The notes below the pieces were generated by a model. That model was not told where the DNA came from. It searched no databases and worked only from the letters and a program-made list of their open reading frames with translations. The position numbers and the translations under genes are program-made. Shown in pieces: positions 1,557 to 59,109 of a stretch of DNA of 64,000 nt. Location of the stretch: positions 9,323-73,322 of the forward strand of contig CACYXC010000010.1 in the NCBI GenBank assembly GCA_902778285.1, in the 5' to 3' direction. Source of the stretch: Oscillospiraceae bacterium (GTDB lineage Bacteria > Bacillota > Clostridia > Oscillospirales > Oscillospiraceae). How positions within the stretch are numbered: position 1 is the stretch's first letter; each line of letters starts with the position of its first letter.

Positions 1557-2750
1557 TCATTCCGCCGTGTAGTTGTCGAAGTAGCCCTGGATGAAGACGA
1601 TGGGCGTGCCCTTGTCGCCGGAGCCGGAGGTCAGGTCGCACAGGGAGCCGATCAGGTCGGTAAGACGACGGGGCGTGGTGCCCTCGGAGACCATCTGGCC
1701 CACAAGGTCGCTGTCCTTCTTCTGGATCTCGCCCTTGATCGCCTCGCGCAGCGCCTCGCCGGAGAGCGCGGCAAAGTCGTTGTCGGCCAGATATTTGAGC
1801 TTGAGCTCGTTGGGGGTCCCTTCGAGGCCGACAGTGTAGGCGGGGGAAACGACGGGGTCCGCCAGCTCCCAAATCTTGCCGACAGGGTCCTTGAACGCGC
1901 CGTCACCGTAGACCATGACCTCAACGCGCTTGCCGGTTTTCTCGAGCAGCTCCTGCTGGATGGCGACCACGAGCGGCTGGCAGTCGCGCGGGAAGAGCTT
2001 GACCTTGTCCTCGGTGGCCTTGTTGGAGCCCAGCAGACCGTACTTTTCGTTGTATCCGCTGCCGTTTACGGGAGCGGTCATGATCTCGTCCAGACCGAAA
2101 ACTTTTTCGCCGCCGGCGGCCTTCAGGATGCGGCTCGTCCGGACGCGGGTGTGGATATCGCAGTGGATGACGTTTTTGGTGTGGTGGAGGATCTCGCGCG
2201 GATCGTTGGCGAAGATGACCTCGACCTCGGCGCCGGACTCGCGAATGAGCTCGGAGTAGTACGCGACATAGTCCACGCCGGTAAAGCGGTGCTTGTTGAA
2301 GCCGAAGAGCTCCCGGTAGCGCTCAAGGCTGAGCACGTCGCGGTAGGGGTCGACGCCCCTGCTGTCAAGGGAATCCCAGTCGATCAAATGGTTGCCGACC
2401 TCGTCCGAGGGGTAGGAGAGCATCAAAACGACCTTCTCCGCACCCTTGGCGATGCCGCGCAGGCAGATGGCGAAGCGGTTGCGGCTGAGGATGGGGAAGA
2501 TGACGCCCACGGTCCCGCCGCCGAGCTTGGCTTTGACGTCCGCGGCGATATCGTCCACAGTCGCGTAGTTGCCCTGCGCGCGGGCGACGATCGCCTCGGT
2601 CATGGCGACAATGTCACGGTCATGGATGGTGAAACCGTCCTGACGGGAGGCTTCCAGCAGCGACTCGGTCACGATCTTCTGCAGATCGTCGCCCTCGCGG
2701 ATGATCGGCGCGCGGATGCCCCGGGAAACAGTACCTACCTTACGGCTCAT
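1557..2750 (-). CDS. CofE-like (F420-0:gamma-glutamyl ligase family) protein
   Basis: 397-aa ORF, MSRKVGTVSRGIRAPIIREGDDL...GVIFPILSRNRF... The family assignment comes from remembered sequence patterns of CofE-like proteins in Clostridia and has not been searched. Confidence 0.6.
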   Translation of the reverse strand: MSRKVGTVSRGIRAPIIREGDDLQKIVTESLLEASRQDGFTIHDRDIVAMTEAIVARAQGNYATVDDIAADVKAKLGGGTVGVIFPILSRNRFAICLRGIAKGAEKVVLMLSYPSDEVGNHLIDWDSLDSRGVDPYRDVLSLERYRELFGFNKHRFTGVDYVAYYSELIRESGAEVEVIFANDPREILHHTKNVIHCDIHTRVRTSRILKAAGGEKVFGLDEIMTAPVNGSGYNEKYGLLGSNKATEDKVKLFPRDCQPLVVAIQQELLEKTGKRVEVMVYGDGAFKDPVGKIWELADPVVSPAYTVGLEGTPNELKLKYLADNDFAALSGEALREAIKGEIQKKDSDLVGQMVSEGTTPRRLTDLIGSLCDLTSGSGDKGTPIVFIQGYFDNYTAE

Positions 2751-2918
2751 GGTTCAACACCTCTATGTATAGTTTTTTTACCTTCATACTATACTACATC
2801 TTCGACTGATTGTAAAACGGAAAATAGATAGGCGAATGATAAAGATTGGGCCGAAGCAATGGGAAAAGATTGGGAATAATAGACAAGACGTCCGCTCCCG
2901 AGATACAGGAGCGGACGT

Positions 2919-3046
2919 CAGACTGTAAGACAAACCCTTTGCGGCGGGCCTGGATACGCATGGGGAGAGCGCGAGAGGGGATTGGTGATTCCCTCTCGCA
3001 GTTCAATTTCGCCTTTCAAGCTGTCGACACGGCGTCGACAGCTTGA
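2919..3046 (+). mobile_element. MITE-like structured repeat, copy A (short form, lacks the A/T hairpin module)
   Basis: Contains CAGACTGTAAGACAAACC...GCATGGGGAGAGCGCGAGAGGGGATTGGTGATTCCCTCTCGC...CAAGCTGTCGACACGGCGTCGACAGCTTGA. It is flanked by two related but diverged hairpins, 2887..2919 and 3046..3076, which share CCGCTCCCG. Confidence 0.75.
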
Positions 3047-3088
3047 AGGCCGCCCCCGCAGCACGGGAGCGGCCTTCCGGCGAATCGA

Positions 3089-4030
3089 TCAGGCGATCTT
3101 TTTCATTTTGTCGTTGAGCCACTTGAGGATATCGCGATAGACGTCCTCGCGGTTGATCTCGTTAAGCATCTCGTGCCGTCCCCCGGGATAGAGGCGGATC
3201 ATCACGTCCTTGATACCGGCGTCGCAGAAGGACCTGTAGGCCTTCTCAACGCCCGCGCCGTAATCGCCGACCGGGTCCTCCTCGCCGGACATGAAGTAGA
3301 TCGGAGCGTCCTTGTTCATCTTGTCCACGTTCTTCTGACTGCCGATGAAGCGGATGCCGGCCATCATGTCACGGTAGAGGCTGACCTTCGCCACGAAGCC
3401 GCAGAAAGGATCGGCGATGTATTTGTCCACATTGGCCTCGTCCCGGCTCAGCCAGTCGAAAGGCGTGCGGGGATTTGGGATCTTCTTGCAGTAGGAGCCG
3501 AAGGCCATGTCGTTGAGCTTCTGCCCGTCGCCGCGAGGCCCGCTTTTTTTGACGAGGAGATTGGCCGCGGTATAGCCCGCGAAGACCAGCGCCCTGCCCT
3601 GCTGACCGGTGCCGCTGATGATGGCGGCGTCGTATTTGTCCGGGTGCTCGATCAGGTAGGTGCGGGTCAAAAAGCTGCCCATGCTGTGTCCGAAGAAGAT
3701 ATAGGGCAGATCGGGGTATTCTGCGTGCATAAGGTCGCGCAGTTTGTCCATGTCCCTGATGACGTGGTCCCAGCCATCGCTCTCGGCGAAAAAGCCCAGA
3801 TCGGCCGGGTCGGTGACGGTCTGGCCATGGCCCAGATGATCGTCGCCCACGGCGACAAAGCCGTTTTCGGCGAGGAAGGAGGCAAAATCGTCATAGCGGT
3901 TGATGTGCTCGGCGATGCCGTGCTCGATCTGGATCACGGCGCGCGGCGCGCCGTCGGGCAGACATTTGCGCGCGTGGATACGGTTTTTTCCGGTGCTGGA
4001 GTCAAAATAAAAATCCTCAAAACTGGGCAT
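3089..4030 (-). CDS. Alpha/beta hydrolase (lysophospholipase / monoacylglycerol-lipase-like)
   Basis: Track ORF is 3089..4048. It carries a GHSMGS nucleophile elbow and an HG oxyanion region. I moved the start to ATG 4030 (MPSFEDF...) because GGGGGAAG lies 6-8 nt upstream, whereas ATG 4048 has no RBS. Confidence 0.75.
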   Translation of the reverse strand: MPSFEDFYFDSSTGKNRIHARKCLPDGAPRAVIQIEHGIAEHINRYDDFASFLAENGFVAVGDDHLGHGQTVTDPADLGFFAESDGWDHVIRDMDKLRDLMHAEYPDLPYIFFGHSMGSFLTRTYLIEHPDKYDAAIISGTGQQGRALVFAGYTAANLLVKKSGPRGDGQKLNDMAFGSYCKKIPNPRTPFDWLSRDEANVDKYIADPFCGFVAKVSLYRDMMAGIRFIGSQKNVDKMNKDAPIYFMSGEEDPVGDYGAGVEKAYRSFCDAGIKDVMIRLYPGGRHEMLNEINREDVYRDILKWLNDKMKKIA

Positions 4031-4116: not shown

Positions 4117-4545
4117 ATGAAGGTCTATATCAAATATTTCGATAAAGAGATCACGCCGGTGCAGAAGATCGAAAAAGGGGACTGGATCGATCTGCGCGCG
4201 GCGGAAACCGTGGAGATGAAGGCGGGGGACTGGGGCTTTATCCGCCTCGGCATAGGCATGATCCTGCCCGAGGGATATGAGGCGCATGTGGCCCCGCGCA
4301 GCAGCACGTTCAAGAATTTCGGCATCCTCGTGTCCAACAGCTTCGGCATCATCGACAACTCCTTCTCCGGCGAGGAGGATGAGTGGCGCCTGCCCGTATA
4401 CGCCGCGCGCGATACCGTAATTCACAAAAACGACAGGATCTGTCAGTTCCGCATTGTGGAGAAGCAGCCGGATTTCGAGCTGGAGACCGTCGAGCACCTG
4501 CGGGACGTCAGCCGCGGAGGCTTCGGCTCGACCGGGAAGGATTGA
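4117..4545 (+). CDS. dut: dUTP diphosphatase
   Basis: MKVYIKYF... with GIIDNSFSGEEDEW (motif 3-like) and a C-terminal GGFGSTG. AAGGAGA lies upstream of ATG 4117. The track start at 4096 is an upstream alternative. Confidence 0.8.
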   Translation: MKVYIKYFDKEITPVQKIEKGDWIDLRAAETVEMKAGDWGFIRLGIGMILPEGYEAHVAPRSSTFKNFGILVSNSFGIIDNSFSGEEDEWRLPVYAARDTVIHKNDRICQFRIVEKQPDFELETVEHLRDVSRGGFGSTGKD

Positions 4546-4575: not shown

Positions 4576-4736
4576 GGGACTGCAGACAAAGCTATGCGGA
4601 CAGGCTTGGATCCGCATGGGGAGAGCGCGAGAGGGGATTGGGTATTCCCTCTCGCGTTTGATATTCTCAAGAATGAGAACTTTTTCGGAAGTTTTCATTT
4701 TTGATTCGCAAGGTGTCGACATTTTTTGACACCTTG
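4576..4736 (+). mobile_element. MITE-like structured repeat, copy B (long form, slightly decayed ends)
   Basis: The 5' end is degenerate (GGGACTGCAGACAAAGC). The core GCATGGGGAGAGCGCGAGAGGGGATTGGGTATTCCCTCTCGCG is intact. The A/T hairpin module AAGAATGAGAACTTTTTCGGAAGTTTTCATTTTT is present, and the 3' palindrome is CAAGGTGTCGACATTTTTTGACACCTTG. Confidence 0.7.
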
Positions 4737-4738
4737 CG

Positions 4739-9234: not shown

Positions 9235-9821
9235 GGACGGCACAGATCGAACGCAAAACGGCGGAGACGGACATCAGCCTGCGCCTGAATCTGGACGGCT
9301 GCGGCGAGTGCAGCGTGAGCAGCGGCGTGGGCTTTCTCGACCACATGCTGACGCTCTTTGCCCGCCACAGCGGCTTTGATCTGACGCTCAGCTGCGTGGG
9401 CGACACAGAGGTCGACGATCATCACAGTGTCGAGGATATCGGCATCTGCCTCGGCCGCGCGCTGGCCGAGGCGCTGGACGAGAAGCGCGGCGTGGCCCGC
9501 TACGGCGATATCACGCTGCCGATGGACGAGGCGCTGATCCTTGCGGCGGTCGACCTGTCCGGCCGCGGCGCCTTCTTCAGCGAGCTCTCGATCCCGACGC
9601 AGAAGGTCGGCAGCTTCGACACGGAGCTGGTGGAGGAGTTTTTCATCGCTCTCTGCCGCGAGGCCGGCATCACGCTGCACCTGCGGCAGCTCTCGGGACG
9701 CAACAGCCACCACATCATCGAGGGCTGCTTCAAGGCCTTCGCGCGCGCGCTGGCCAAGGCGGCGGCGATCGACGGGAAGAACCTGGGCCGCGTGCCCTCG
9801 ACCAAGGGGATGCTGGTATGA
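9231..9821 (+). CDS. hisB: Imidazoleglycerol-phosphate dehydratase
   Basis: MRTAQIERKTAETDISLRLNLDG...GFLDHML...DDHHSVEDIGI...NSHHIIEG... Confidence 0.9.
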   Translation: MRTAQIERKTAETDISLRLNLDGCGECSVSSGVGFLDHMLTLFARHSGFDLTLSCVGDTEVDDHHSVEDIGICLGRALAEALDEKRGVARYGDITLPMDEALILAAVDLSGRGAFFSELSIPTQKVGSFDTELVEEFFIALCREAGITLHLRQLSGRNSHHIIEGCFKAFARALAKAAAIDGKNLGRVPSTKGMLV

Positions 9822-10432
9822 TCGCGGTCGTGGATTACGGCGTGGGCAATCTCTTCTCGCTCTGCTCCTCGCTCCGCGCCATTGGGGCGGAGGCGGTCGT
9901 AACGAACGAGAAAAGCGTTCTCCGCAGCGCCGACAAGATCATCCTGCCCGGCGTCGGCGCTTTTGGCGACGCGGCTGAAAAGCTGCGGGAGCAGGGGATT
10001 GATTCGCTGCTGACCGAACAGGCCGCGCAGGGCAGGGAGATCCTCGGCATCTGCCTCGGCATGCAGCTTCTCTTTGAGAGCAGCGAGGAATATGGCTTTC
10101 ATCGCGGTCTCGGCCTGCTCAAGGGCCGCGTCGTTGCGATGGAGGGAAGGCTCCCGCCTGAGCTGAAGATCCCGCACATCGGCTGGAACGCGCTGCGTTT
10201 CCGGCGTGACCACAGGCTTCTGCGTTATATCCACGACGGAGACTGCGTGTACTTTGTGCACTCTTTCTATGCGGAGGACTGCAGCGACAGCCTCGTTGCC
10301 GCGGCGGAGTACGGCCGGGAAATCACGGCGATCGTCGGAAGCGGCAATGTGATGGGCTGCCAGTTCCACCCGGAGAAGAGCGGCGGCGTGGGTCTGAACA
10401 TTTTGAGAGCATTCTGTGAGGAGACGGCATGA
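9818..10432 (+). CDS. hisH: Imidazole glycerol phosphate synthase, glutaminase subunit
   Basis: MIAVVDYGVGNLFS...ILPGVGAFG...GICLGMQLL...PHIGWN...FVHSF... Confidence 0.9.
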   Translation: MIAVVDYGVGNLFSLCSSLRAIGAEAVVTNEKSVLRSADKIILPGVGAFGDAAEKLREQGIDSLLTEQAAQGREILGICLGMQLLFESSEEYGFHRGLGLLKGRVVAMEGRLPPELKIPHIGWNALRFRRDHRLLRYIHDGDCVYFVHSFYAEDCSDSLVAAAEYGREITAIVGSGNVMGCQFHPEKSGGVGLNILRAFCEETA

Positions 10433-13409: not shown

Positions 13410-13555
13410 ACAGAGGGCGGAGGAACTCTGGAGAATCTCATGCTGCATGAGTGCCGAAGGTGCAAGGCCGGAAACGGCCGAATCTCTCAGGCCAAAGGAC
13501 AGAGCACACAGTCGGCGGCCTTGCGTGTATTGTCCAGGCCGCCGACTGTCATTAT
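13410..13555 (+). promoter_or_regulatory. Glycine riboswitch (single recognisable aptamer) with terminator-like expression platform
   Basis: CTCTGGAGAA-[P2 hairpin]-GCCGAAGGTGCAA-[GGCCGGAAACGGCC]-GAATCTCTCAGGCCAAAGGACAGAG matches the glycine aptamer core (CUCUGGAGAG...GCCGAAGGrGCAA...CUCUCAGGCAAAAGGAC). It is followed by the 13-bp-arm hairpin ACAGTCGGCGGCC/GGCCGCCGACTGT (13508..13549). The downstream gene is an alanine/glycine:cation symporter. Confidence 0.75.
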
Positions 13556-15029: not shown

Positions 15030-15093
15030 GCAAGCGCAAAGAGCGAGCGAAATGAATGGAAAACAAAAAGAACCGCACCTCGTGAGGTGCGGT

Positions 15094-15256
15094 CAAGCTG
15101 TCGACAAAGTGTCGACAGCTTGAAAGGCAAAAACAGAAACATTCGAAAATGTTCCTGTTTTTGCTGACATTGAAATGCGAGAGGGAAAAACCAATCCCCT
15201 CTCGCGCTCTCCCCATGCGCGTCCATCCTGGTCGCGTTGGGTTTGTCTACAGTCTG
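15094..15256 (-). mobile_element. MITE-like structured repeat, copy C (long form, variant A/T hairpin)
   Basis: Full element in reverse orientation. It is flanked by identical 22-bp direct copies of the hairpin ACCGCACCTCGTGAGGTGCGGT (15072..15093 and 15257..15278). The outer A-run and T-run (AAAAAGA / TCTTTTT) show that one bidirectional terminator between the symporter and secG was split and duplicated. Confidence 0.85.
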
Positions 15257-15299
15257 ACCGCACCTCGTGAGGTGCGGTTCTTTTTGCTATCAATTTATC

Positions 15300-16351: not shown

Positions 16352-16399
16352 GTGCGACATTCACAAGAATAGATGCTCCCGGCTTCCGGCCGGGGGCAT

Positions 16400-16560
16400 C
16401 AGACTGTAGACAAACCCATTTAGAACAAGTCGGACTTGCATGGGGAGAGCGCGAGAGGGGATTGGTTATTCCCTCTCGCGCTTGATATCCTCAAAAATGA
16501 GAACTTTTTGAAAGTTCTCATTTTTGATTCTCAAGGTGTCGACACTATGTCGACACCTTG
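16400..16560 (+). mobile_element. MITE-like structured repeat, copy D (long form)
   Basis: Complete element. The left flank is the terminator hairpin GATGCTCCCGGCTTCCGGCCGGGGGCATC (16372..16400). On the right, only its first 13 nt (ATGCTCCCGGCTT, 16561..16573) are repeated. Confidence 0.85.
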
Positions 16561-16918
16561 ATGCTCCCGGCTTTAGGGCGCGCAGAATTGGGATACGACA
16601 GCGCAAAAAGGATCATTTCGCGCCTGACGTCGTTGAAAATGCTCGGGATACAGCTCAAGTATTCCTGCGTTTTTCGCCTTGTCCGACACAAAAAACACTT
16701 TTCTTGCGTGCAAAGCAGTTTTGAGCGAGGCATTTTGTTCAGACAATACAGAACAATCCGGGAATACAAGATGTATTTCCTGATTTTTCTGTGCAGTATG
16801 GGCGGAAAAGGGCCGCTCAAAACCTGTCGCCTTCCTGATCTGCGCGCCCTTTCGACCGGGGTCATTTTGCTGAAACAATTCATCATCGCGCCGTATCGTA
16901 TTCCCGACAGTCAAACTG

Positions 16919-21444: not shown

Positions 21445-21468
21445 TAGTTTTCAGTTTTCAGATTTCAG
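21445..21468 (+). repeat. Short tandem heptamer TTTTCAG x3 directly after the stop codon
   Basis: TAGTTTTCAGTTTTCAGATTTCAG. The first 12 nt of AATAGTTTTCAG (21443..21454) are identical to 58771..58782. Confidence 0.5.
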
Positions 21469-21502
21469 AAAGCAACAGCCCCGCTCTTTCGAGCAGGGCT
21501 GT

Positions 21503-21666
21503 CAAGCTGTCGACAAAGTGTCGACAGCTTGAAAATCAAAAATGAGAGCTCCCCAAAAAGTTCTCATTTTTGAGTATATCAATCGCGAGAGGGAATAACC
21601 AATCCCCTCTCGCGCTCTCCCCATGCGTGTCAAACTTCGGCAGCATGTGGGTTTGTCTACAGTCTG
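21503..21666 (-). mobile_element. MITE-like structured repeat, copy E (long form)
   Basis: Complete element in reverse orientation, flanked by identical 28-bp direct copies of the hairpin ACAGCCCCGCTCTTTCGAGCAGGGCTGT (21475..21502 and 21667..21694). Confidence 0.85.
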
Positions 21667-21711
21667 ACAGCCCCGCTCTTTCGAGCAGGGCTGTCAGTTT
21701 TGTTATAGGGA

Positions 21712-27035: not shown

Positions 27036-27354
27036 TTTTCAGCGCAATGACGAACAGGAGTAGATCTGTCGGCGGATCACAGAGAGGGGACGGTCGGTGC
27101 AAGTCCCTGTGAAGCGGGGTCGAAGGTCGGTTCCGAGCGCCCGGGGGGAAGGGGAGACCTGCGTAGTCCCGGCGTGTGGTCCGCGTTAAGGACCGCAAGA
27201 GTGCCGCGTTTGCGTCATTCTGAGCGAAGCGAAGAATCTCATGAGATCCTTCGTCGCTTTGCTCCTCAGGATGACAGGCAAGGCGGAATTCAGGTGGTAC
27301 CGCGGTATGTTTATCGCCCTGAGACGGAAACGTCTCAGGGCGTTTCTGATTTTT
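27036..27354 (+). promoter_or_regulatory. T-box leader (valine-type by context)
   Basis: Stem I elements are present (AGTA, AGAGA, GGTGCAA). GTC occurs twice in the specifier region (~27128..27145). The T-box sequence AATTCAGGTGGTACCGCGG is at 27287..27305. The terminator CGCCCTGAGACG-GAAA-CGTCTCAGGGCG plus TTTCTGATTTTT is at 27315..27354. Confidence 0.85.
27214..27275 (+). repeat. 62-nt imperfect palindrome occupying the Stem III position of the T-box leader
   Basis: GTCATTCTGAGCGAAGCGAAGAATCTCAT / ATGAGATCCTTCGTCGCTTTGCTCCTCAGGATGAC. Confidence 0.6.
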
Positions 27355-34640: not shown

Positions 34641-34678
34641 TAGAATAAGCGAGAGGCTTTCCTACGCGGAAAGCCTCT

Positions 34679-34797
34679 CAGACTGTAGACAAACCTATAC
34701 AGAGCAAGTCGGACTTGCATGGGGAGAGCGCGAGAGGGGATTGGGTATTCCCTCTCGCGTTTGATATTCTCAAAATCGACACTTTGTCGACACCCTG
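34679..34797 (+). mobile_element. MITE-like structured repeat, copy F (short form, partly deleted 3' palindrome)
   Basis: Flanked by 28-29-bp direct copies of the hairpin GAGAGGCTTTCCTACGCGGAAAGCCTCTC (34651..34679 and 34797..34825). The T-run follows only the right copy. Confidence 0.8.
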
Positions 34798-34828
34798 AGA
34801 GGCTTTCCTACGCGGAAAGCCTCTCGTT

Positions 34829-54253: not shown

Positions 54254-54284
54254 CAGATTGGAAAGACAACTGGGGAGGCACGTT

Positions 54285-54381
54285 TTCGCAGATATTGTAA
54301 CGCGAGAGGGGATAACCAATCCCCTCTCGCACTCTCCTCATGCACATCCAGGCCTGTCTCACGGGCTTCATTTACATTCTG
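54285..54381 (-). mobile_element. MITE-like structured repeat, copy G (degenerate, truncated)
   Basis: CGCGAGAGGGGATAACCAATCCCCTCTCGCACTCTCCTCATGCACATCCAGGCC...TTCATTTACATTCTG aligns to the core and the 5' end of the family. The 3' palindrome and the flanking hairpin duplication are missing. Confidence 0.55.
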
Positions 54382-55710: not shown

Positions 55711-55787
55711 TGGCACCCACGAGAGGATTCGAACCTCCGACCTGCCGCTTAGGAGGCGGCCGCTCTATCCTGCTGAGCTACGTGGGC
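55711..55787 (-). tRNA. tRNA-Arg (anticodon CCU), CCA encoded
   Basis: Reverse complement: GCCCACGTAGCTCAGCAGGATAGAGCGGCCGCCTCCTAAGCGGCAGGTCGGAGGTTCGAATCCTCTCGTGGGTGCCA. I folded the cloverleaf by hand: 7-bp acceptor stem, GCTC/GAGC D stem, GCCGC/GCGGC anticodon stem with loop CTCCTAA, and GGAGG-TTCGAAT-CCTCT T arm. Confidence 0.9.
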
Positions 55788-58775: not shown

Positions 58776-58900
58776 TTTTCAGGATACAGTTTTCAGAGAT
58801 CGCCTTGTTGCTTTGGCTTCCGCCGGGAAACTATATGTGAATGTAAGGGATTGTGCCGATCTCGTATGGACTTCTCTCTGAAAACTCAATACTGAAAACT
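58774..58900. repeat. 127-bp segment bounded by 25-nt imperfect inverted repeats rich in TTTTCAG
   Basis: AGTTTTCAGGATACAGTTTTCAGAG (58774..58798) against CTCTGAAAACTCAATACTGAAAACT (58876..58900); 19 of 25 positions are complementary. Confidence 0.45.
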
Positions 58901-58945
58901 GAGGACTAAAAACGGGCTATGAAAGACTTATCTTTCATACCGTTC

Positions 58946-59070
58946 CAGACTGTAGACAAACCCATACAGAGCAAGTCGGACTCGCATGGGGAGAGCGCGA
59001 GAGGGGACGGTAATCCCCTTTCGCGGTACAATCTGTGCAAAAATCTGTCGACACTTTGTCGACAGCTTGA
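58946..59070 (+). mobile_element. MITE-like structured repeat, copy H (short form)
   Basis: Flanked by 34-36-bp direct copies of the hairpin AACGGGCTATGAAAGACTTATCTTTCATAGCCCGTT (58911..58944, with a 2-nt loss, and 59071..59106). The core hairpin carries a compensated variant, GAGAGGGGACGGTAATCCCCTTTC. Confidence 0.8.
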
Positions 59071-59109
59071 AACGGGCTATGAAAGACTTATCTTTCATAG
59101 CCCGTTCTG

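Follow-up and report, generated by a model that had tools for sequence, protein, structure and literature searches.

The DNA analyzed here (the window) is a stretch of 64,000 nucleotides from an Oscillospiraceae bacterium (contig CACYXC010000010.1, positions 9,323 to 73,322), with a G+C content of 59% and a gene content typical of Clostridia. Repeat finding and alignment revealed within it eight copies (A–H) of one short element with a typical length of ∼162 bp. The element is a MITE (miniature inverted-repeat transposable element): it is short and non-coding, it is present in many copies (8 in the window, ∼30 in one metagenome-assembled genome (MAG), and at least 120 loci in metagenomes), it has inverted-repeat ends and duplicates its target, and at four of its sites both empty and filled alleles exist. 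The target that it duplicates is a whole hairpin, one copy of which is found on each side of the insertion.

Anatomy of the element

The MITE ranges from 119 to 164 bp and has no coding capacity; no open reading frame (ORF) was seen conserved across its copies, whose conserved parts vary by compensatory changes in hairpins. In the orientation of copy C, its 5′ part is a perfect terminal palindrome, CAAGCTGTCGACA-AAG-TGTCGACAGCTTG, which is followed by an A/T-flanked hairpin that resembles a bidirectional terminator, then by a strongly conserved core hairpin (GCGAGAGGG-loop-CCCTCTCGC) that leads into GCTCTCCCCATGC, and finally by a 3′ portion consisting of a variable hairpin and the right end GGGTTTGTCTACAGTCTG. 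The two tips, CAAGCTGTCGACAAAG and CAGACTGTAGACAAAC, are terminal inverted repeats that match at 13 of 16 positions. The three hairpins are retained in an alignment of 23 diverse copies, where compensatory changes occur in 19 of 32 base pairs. We rejected a structured RNA as the identity of the element: no Rfam family matches it at gathering level in the window, and none does in an E-value search of a cargo-bearing copy (at locus L022, described below). The gathering-level Rfam matches in the window are ordinary features (last rows of Table 1).

Hairpins flanking the window copies

A preliminary description of this DNA had claimed that the duplicated unit at copies C, E, F and H is the local terminator hairpin, and all four duplications are indeed found (Table 1). 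Of the lengths given there (22, 28, 29 and ∼36 bp), those for copies C and E are exact, and that for copy F lies at the upper end of 27–29 bp, 29 bp being reached if an ambiguous end G and C are included. The value for copy H stands only as an approximation: its hairpins measure 35 and 37 nt, and the duplication is near-perfect rather than perfect, 2 nt having been lost from one hairpin copy. At copy C, AAAAAGA lies on the left side only and TCTTTTT on the right side only, just as had been described.

Copies A, B, D and G are older or damaged insertions, and the hairpin pair of copy A differs by compensatory stem changes. The same is seen more widely: in older insertions (window 2888-2918 versus 3046-3076; L003, L020, L028 and L038; L052 versus L045; L numbers denote loci retrieved in this study), most differences between the hairpin copies of a pair lie in the loop or are compensatory changes in the stem, which suggests either that both copies are under selection as hairpins or that they are homogenized within the palindrome.

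A separate observation concerns the surroundings of the targets. Short (T)TTTCAG heptad runs adjoin several target hairpins (window 21448-21470 and ∼58870-58905; L004, L018, L041 and L123), and a strict double-heptad pattern gives 6 overlapping matches, all at window 21448-21470, where 0.25 are expected from mononucleotide shuffles.

Table 1. Positions of the MITE copies, their flanking hairpins and other features in the window.
Feature	Position	Strand	Description
Copy C, left hairpin	15072-15093	+	22 bp, ACCGCACCTCGTGAGGTGCGGT; identical to 15257-15278; AAAAAGA just upstream
Copy C, MITE	15094-15256	+	163 bp; both ends abut the 22-bp hairpin copies
Copy C, terminal palindrome	15094-15122	+	
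Copy C, A/T-flanked hairpin	15127-15164	+	
Copy C, core hairpin	15177-15205	+	followed by GCTCTCCCCATGC
Copy C, right inverted repeat	15241-15256	+	
Copy C, right hairpin	15257-15278	+	22 bp, ACCGCACCTCGTGAGGTGCGGT; TCTTTTT just downstream
Copy E	21475-21694	+	28-bp hairpin ACAGCCCCGCTCTTTCGAGCAGGGCTGT at 21475-21502 and 21667-21694; MITE 21503-21666
Copy F	34652-34824	-	27-bp hairpin repeat at 34652-34678 and 34798-34824; MITE 34679-34797, internally deleted
Copy H	58911-59107	-	hairpins 58911-58945 (35 nt) and 59071-59107 (37 nt); MITE 58946-59069, internally deleted
Copy A	2888-3076	-	MITE 2919-3045 without A/T hairpin; diverged hairpins 2888-2918 and 3046-3076
Copy B	4576-4737	-	decayed MITE ends; hairpin on left side only, right flank degraded
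Copy D	16373-16573	-	MITE 16400-16560; full hairpin 16373-16399; only its last 13 nt at 16561-16573
Copy G	54282-54381	+	5′-truncated remnant; core 54302-54330, degenerate right end 54363-54381; no flanking hairpins
Glycine riboswitch	13418-13512		Rfam gathering-level match; ordinary feature
T-box leader	27038-27324		Rfam gathering-level match; ordinary feature
tRNA gene	55714-55787		Rfam gathering-level match; ordinary feature

Empty alleles and a site used twice

Empty and occupied alleles of the window sites were retrieved by way of contigs that encode exactly the same neighboring proteins. Site C is empty in L045, L048, L049 and L051, where AAAAAGA-ACCGCACCTCGTGAGGTGCGGT-TCTTTTT is present once, and is occupied as in the window in L046 and L047; the occupied and empty alleles differ in length by 163 + 22 bp. 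Empty alleles with one hairpin were likewise found for site E (L261, L262 and L267, identical in sequence), site F (L243 and L244) and site H (L270, L271, L272 and L279). Site F is occupied in L245, L246 and L250 by a MITE with an intact A/T hairpin, in contigs that end inside the element. The empty sites were inspected for hairpins already in tandem, the arrangement at odds with the preliminary description, and every empty allele of C, E, F and H has a single hairpin, identical to the two copies of the occupied allele. Because the empty sites are single and the occupied sites doubled, the flanking repeats are true target-site duplications.

Site C has been hit more than once. In L053 (1747-2036) it holds a different MITE variant, in the opposite orientation and with the identical 22-bp duplication; this insertion is an event independent of copy C, at the same two phosphodiester positions. 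Both insertions were cut at identical positions even though the palindrome at site C extends past the duplication, by 8 complementary pairs in the script count (AAAAAGA/TCTTTTT and one more pair). The cuts thus fall symmetrically at or near the two feet of the stem, in line with the preliminary description.

Two further arrangements were seen at these sites. In L050 (3235-3490), the right flank of the MITE is site C and the left flank is another hairpin, next to priA, which looks like recombination between two MITE copies. In L263, L264 and L269 (∼1580-2700, corresponding to the site at window 21475-21502), an IS3-family element (HTH_Tnp_1 and rve domains) lies in the loop of the site-E hairpin, so this terminator hairpin has been used differently by two unrelated families of insertion sequences (IS).

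Census of insertions and cut points

To compare insertions more broadly, we scanned one genome per species with the core motif, which gave 42 loci (mostly in one rumen MAG, the rest in Ruminococcaceae and Oscillospiraceae MAGs), and scanned metagenome contigs with the left palindrome, which gave at least 120. The census comprises 95 non-redundant copies from loci other than the window, in genomes and metagenomes, with both ends and 50-nt flanks present. A perfect flanking repeat of 17–35 bp is found in 33 of the 95, and another 40 have imperfect, recognizably related hairpins; the hairpins on the two sides are different in 11 copies, a hairpin is present on one side only in 8, and no hairpin is present in 3. 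The duplication is thus systematic across copies, with a hairpin on at least one side in 92/95, and chance falls far short of explaining it.

The 33 perfect duplications are palindromes without sequence kinship, with perfect stems of 6–16 bp. Their outermost bases pair in 27 cases, and the remainder have a 1-nt overhang on one or both sides. The claim that the duplication spans the whole hairpin from foot to foot holds for 25 of the 33, where the palindrome ends within 1 bp of the end of the duplication; it fails for the other 8, site C among such cases, where the palindrome runs on for 2–8 bp, mostly A/T-rich. A weak, symmetric base bias is present at the cut points, which we write R|A...T|Y (R, purine; Y, pyrimidine): the base preceding the duplication is a purine in 28/33, the first duplicated base is A in 26/33, the last is T in 26/33, and the base following is a pyrimidine in 32/33. 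Apart from this bias, what the targets share is structure rather than sequence, as had been proposed from the few copies in the window.

Relationship to the IS1182 family

When viral contigs were scanned with the right tip of the MITE (16 nt), ∼1.6-kb elements were retrieved that start with CAGACTGTAGACAAAC and end with CTTTGTCTACAGTCTG, with 16 of 16 tip bases matching. These elements adjoin hairpins and contain a single ORF of 444–503 aa. L177, L183, L193, L195 and L205 have exactly the tip of the MITE, the first 15 nt of which are also found in ISEfa7 (from Enterococcus faecium) and in plasmid copies, whose sixteenth base is G. The transposase of the ∼1.6-kb elements has the Pfam domains DUF772, DDE_Tnp_1 and DDE_Tnp_1_6 and scores 453.5 bits on the NCBIfam model for IS1182-family transposases (NF033551, cutoff 270), compared with only 25.6 bits on the model for the IS1634 family (NF033559).

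The full-length elements duplicate hairpins as well. A search with an alignment of three such transposases gave 30 loci, and at least 12 full-length relatives (32–64% GC; 38–100% protein identity to the query) have perfect whole-hairpin duplications of ∼18–26 bp. A thirteenth, L238, has flanking hairpin copies that differ in the loop alone (TTT versus AAA), one copy being in effect inverted. Whole-hairpin duplication also surrounds plasmid copies in Listeria monocytogenes pLIS32, Enterococcus casseliflavus and Staphylococcus arlettae, which brings the full-length IS with this behavior to at least 15; the pLIS32 hairpin, AGACAGCCGCAATGGCTGTCT, has its A-run on the left only and its T-run on the right only. 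We checked the hairpin pairs for loop inversion as a general mechanistic scar and rejected it: the reverse-complement loop occurs only in L238, and the other pairs differ by plain substitutions.

It is instructive to compare the MITE with this ISEfa7-like clade (∼1.5–1.7 kb; L205/L214, L224, L230, L234, L236 and the plasmid copies). The terminal sequence CAGACTGTAGACAAA is common to both, as are a terminal palindrome with a T-run after it (in the clade, at the end that lies upstream of the transposase gene), sub-terminal hairpins, and insertion at hairpins with doubling of the whole hairpin (18–26 bp in the clade). L224 is closest in end structure: its 5′ end, CAGCTTGTCGACAAAGTCGACAAGCT followed by a T-run, forms a terminal palindrome like the MITE left end, its 3′ end is ...TTTTGTCTACAGTCTG, giving the same asymmetric end pair, and in L224, as in the MITE, the other end takes the CAGCTTGTCGACAAAG form. 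In contrast to the clade, the MITE is 162 bp long and non-coding. Its core hairpin, GCGAGAGGG...CCCTCTCGC followed by GCTCTCCCCATGC, was not noticed in the six full-length IS whose ends were displayed, although no search aimed at the core was made. The hosts of the MITE are rumen Clostridia and Oscillospiraceae of ∼59% GC, with tens of copies per genome.

Comparison of the sequences shows that ends and behavior are common to the MITE and IS1182-family elements, and its target duplications of 17–37 bp equal the hairpins, in keeping with the palindromic targets and variable-length repeats reported for the family. Because it shares these features with full-length members, the MITE is a derivative of the ISEfa7-like IS1182 clade; having no ORF, and hence no DDE transposase of its own, it can be only a non-autonomous one. 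The preliminary description had named IS1182 as a family with long, variable duplications, and the identical tips and hairpin duplication bear out that link. Its suggestion that the behavior is unusual fared less well, since doubling of the hairpin is a general trait of a clade in a known family.

Searches for an autonomous partner

An autonomous partner of the MITE would be expected to carry an NF033551 gene between CAAGSTGTCGACAAAG...GTTTGTCTACAGTCTG. The 42 loci of the core-motif genome scan are all MITEs or unrelated repeats, and the loci listed from the left-palindrome metagenome scan (at least 120) are all MITEs. Palindromic direct repeats 0.3–5 kb apart, looked for in ∼1 Mb of fetched loci, gave only the cargo-bearing MITE in L022 and a phage terminator pair around a terminase gene. 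A scan of viral contigs with the left tip gave chance matches only, and blastn of the MITE against a plasmid collection gave no match.

The cargo-bearing copy (L022 1754-3306) is a MITE with a perfect 26-bp hairpin duplication and a 1.34-kb insert (1852-3189) in the loop of its core hairpin. The insert lies between 52-bp direct repeats, contains an HNH-like ORF (2205-2783, minus strand) and has no Rfam match. We rejected it as the autonomous form, since it lies inside the core hairpin between the 52-bp repeats and has no DDE transposase ORF. A different foreign sequence starts inside the core hairpin (...CCCCCCTT|GTATTATTAAGTCGTAGTTAATATAGC...) in L064 (1-210), L112 (∼4290-4367) and L123 (∼9810-9940); the idea that it is the end of a group II intron found no support, the partial sequence giving no Rfam match at the gathering threshold.

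Proposed mechanism and alternatives

In transposition by DDE enzymes, each of the two 3′-OH ends of the element attacks a different target strand, and the target duplication is produced when the resulting single-stranded gaps are repaired. We consider it likely that the present insertions arose in this way from IS1182-derived MITEs, moved in trans, whose 3′ ends were joined at the feet of a palindrome, with gap repair doubling the hairpin. An IS1182-family DDE transposase would mobilize the ∼162-bp MITEs and select palindromes in intergenic regions, most of them rho-independent terminators. The 3′ ends of the element would then be joined, one to each strand, at the outer foot on either side of the stem. 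For the whole palindrome to be duplicated, the attacks must sit at the palindrome's 5′ foot on each strand. Most likely, the palindrome would form a four-way junction at the time of attack on the 5′ foot of each strand's hairpin, either by extrusion or in the grip of the enzyme, and the attack points would thereby lie close together irrespective of stem length. Each flank would keep one single-stranded copy of the palindrome, gap repair would fill both, and a hairpin would result on each side. The length of the duplication would thereby track the size of the hairpin (17–37 bp), and the R|A...T|Y preference would set the cut positions within a long palindrome; together with branch migration of the junction, it could place the cuts within a palindrome lengthened by A/T-rich sequence. 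The geometry of the outcome supports attack at the hairpin feet well, and from that geometry we infer that the target is read as an extruded cruciform, rather than as a palindromic duplex or a single-stranded hairpin.

Several observations weigh against this mechanism. Many target hairpins lie between convergent genes, where positive supercoiling is expected, and such supercoiling would oppose cruciform extrusion. The 8 palindromes that run past their duplications mean that the stem foot is not the sole determinant of the cuts. A matched hairpin pair is absent in 22 of the 95 census copies; it is plausible that unmatched pairs arose by decay or by recombination between copies, as in L050. Finally, no locus that bears the MITE encodes a transposase, neither the window nor ∼1 Mb of such loci yielded an IS1182-family transposase gene with tblastn, and end, hairpin and protein searches did not find the exact autonomous partner, so that we infer mobilization in trans from the shared ends alone. 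A search with the L224 transposase gave more than 7,900 relatives, the best 120 of which, judged by their amino-acid composition, appear to come from low- or mid-GC hosts.

Two other ways of reading the target are possible and fit less well than a junction. In the first, which we regard as unlikely, the same element and transposase would read the target as duplex, through a two-fold symmetric complex that binds half-sites (R|A...T|Y plus a G+C-rich stem) with flexible spacing and without extrusion. Such a complex would explain why the base bias at the cut points is symmetric and why the duplication is always symmetric about the dyad, and it would avoid the difficulty that short stems of 9–16 bp generally extrude poorly in vivo. 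However, the stagger of 17–37 bp corresponds to ∼1.6–3.5 helical turns of varying phase, a range that an active site of fixed geometry would not be expected to cover, and two weakly preferred bases per side are too few to explain hairpins at 92/95 insertions.

In the second, which is more improbable still, the target would be a hairpin on single-stranded DNA (the lagging-strand template or a transcription bubble), and the second copy would come from recopying during fork passage or repair. Hairpins fold readily on single-stranded DNA, and single strands are used by IS200/IS605 elements, group IIC introns and integron attC recombination. The MITE, however, has classic inverted-repeat ends of the kind common to IS that encode DDE transposases, the elements examined showed neither an HUH nor a Y1 gene, and RNA of a group II intron was not detected. 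Moreover, a strand-specific process is not suggested by site C, where the junctions are identical for insertions in either orientation. An origin of the flanking hairpins without insertion, from pre-existing tandem hairpins or from a hairpin carried by the element, is refuted by the empty sites, each with exactly one hairpin of the same sequence as the occupied copies, and by hairpins that differ between sites and match within a site; no point in its favor was left after testing.

With the hairpin doubled, both neighboring genes would keep a terminator, and this may explain why the insertions are tolerated and so numerous; they would then be close to neutral. A broader possibility, to which we give somewhat less than even weight, is that the transposase of the ISEfa7-like IS1182 clade is a true structure-specific integrase with a terminator-preserving ‘safe harbor’ strategy, in a family that would show both hairpin duplication and hairpin deletion. 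If so, each insertion would leave both neighboring genes an intact terminator while the element adds terminator-like hairpins of its own, which would account for MITE populations as large as those seen in rumen Clostridia. The target rules could be tested directly on the several hundred natural insertion sites and their matched empty alleles.

Comparison with known systems

The closest described case is IS1272/TnSha1 of staphylococci, a member of the IS1182 family that is reported to recognize its targets, terminator hairpins and others, by structure and without a sequence consensus, to insert at the stem base, to have reused the same hairpin in both orientations, and to remove all or part of the target hairpin without duplication (‘stem-loop replacing’) (PMC4923244, PMC5678879). 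In the model of Wan et al. (Fig. 13, pathway b), joining of the 3′ ends at the 5′ feet is given as a possible outcome, by which the entire stem-loop would be doubled (PMC5678879). A review (Siguier et al. 2015) is cited in these papers for the targeting of palindromes by some IS1182 members (PMC4923244, PMC5678879), and in one of the two the statement, as quoted there, is described as made ‘without detailed data’. Both IS1272 and the MITE thus choose hairpins by structure, but IS1272 deletes the hairpin and the MITE duplicates it, which is the outcome of pathway b; at all four sites with empty alleles, the hairpin was kept and doubled.

In the literature searched, we found no paper on whole-hairpin duplication by named IS1182 members, none describing the MITE, and no biochemistry on shape-based target choice in the IS1182 family. 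Whole-hairpin duplication therefore appears to be a clade-wide trait of a known family that has been only briefly noted in print, and the element in the window is a new and very abundant non-autonomous IS1182 member. The finding fits the little that is reported for the family and is no surprise to a specialist in it. Its interest lies in how an IS1182-family DDE transposase picks a target by shape rather than by sequence: the single published model is built on IS1272, an element whose insertion destroys the target, and the MITE and its full-length relatives supply the complementary, target-doubling case. The many independent insertions, four verified empty sites, the site hit twice and the measurable cut bias provide rules for an in vitro test to reproduce. 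In practical terms, hairpin-doubling elements create tandem terminators, break short-read assemblies and mediate rearrangements (as in L050), and in Clostridia of the rumen and gut they can pass for regulatory RNA motifs.

The IS4-related IS1634/IS1549 group also makes target duplications that are long and vary in length; to our knowledge, these are not bounded by hairpins, and the transposase family is different, as the bit scores above indicate. The ISfinder summary is said to give direct repeats of 0–60 bp for IS1182. Group IIC introns and the IS that target repetitive extragenic palindromes (REP) (IS1397, ISKpn1, and IS1111/IS110 members) resemble the MITE in preferring intergenic hairpins, terminators or extragenic palindromes. 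In contrast to it, they insert beside or inside the hairpin with no duplication or a fixed short one, the introns by an RNA/reverse-transcriptase mechanism and the REP-targeting IS with IS3- or DEDD-type enzymes. The MITE is not a group IIC intron, having no Rfam match, a length of 162 bp and a hairpin on both sides. Neither is it a REP/REPIN sequence or derived from IS200/IS605: it has inverted-repeat ends and long duplications, and related autonomous elements encode a DDE enzyme. Elements of the IS200/IS605 type insert 3′ of a fixed tetra- or pentanucleotide, whereas the left flanks of the MITE have only the R|A bias in common and no other short motif.

An analogy in outcome is found in CRISPR spacer integration, where Cas1-Cas2 attacks a 28–37-bp repeat, which is often palindromic, at staggered positions on its two borders, and gap filling doubles the repeat. 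The geometry of the outcome is the same as for the MITE, but the likeness is an analogy only: the Cas1-Cas2 enzyme is unrelated, the repeat is set by sequence and leader, and the insert has no inverted-repeat ends.

Minor observations

Parts of the MITE recur outside it. Viral contigs (L182, L208, L213 and the L185 group) contain 44–48-bp ‘tip-loop-tip’ mini-elements, which adjoin hairpins in L208 and L213 but not in L182 or the L185 group. The core motif (GCGAGAGGG...CCCTCTCGC, then GC(G/C)CTCTCCCCATGC) is found again in a different repeat family (L023 1000-1400 and L025 2500-2950) that has other ends (…TTATCCGCTTCGCTCAAAT…) and likewise lies between terminator-like hairpins. A solo 29-bp terminal palindrome stands between two unrelated hairpins in L120 (reverse strand, ∼1100-1128).

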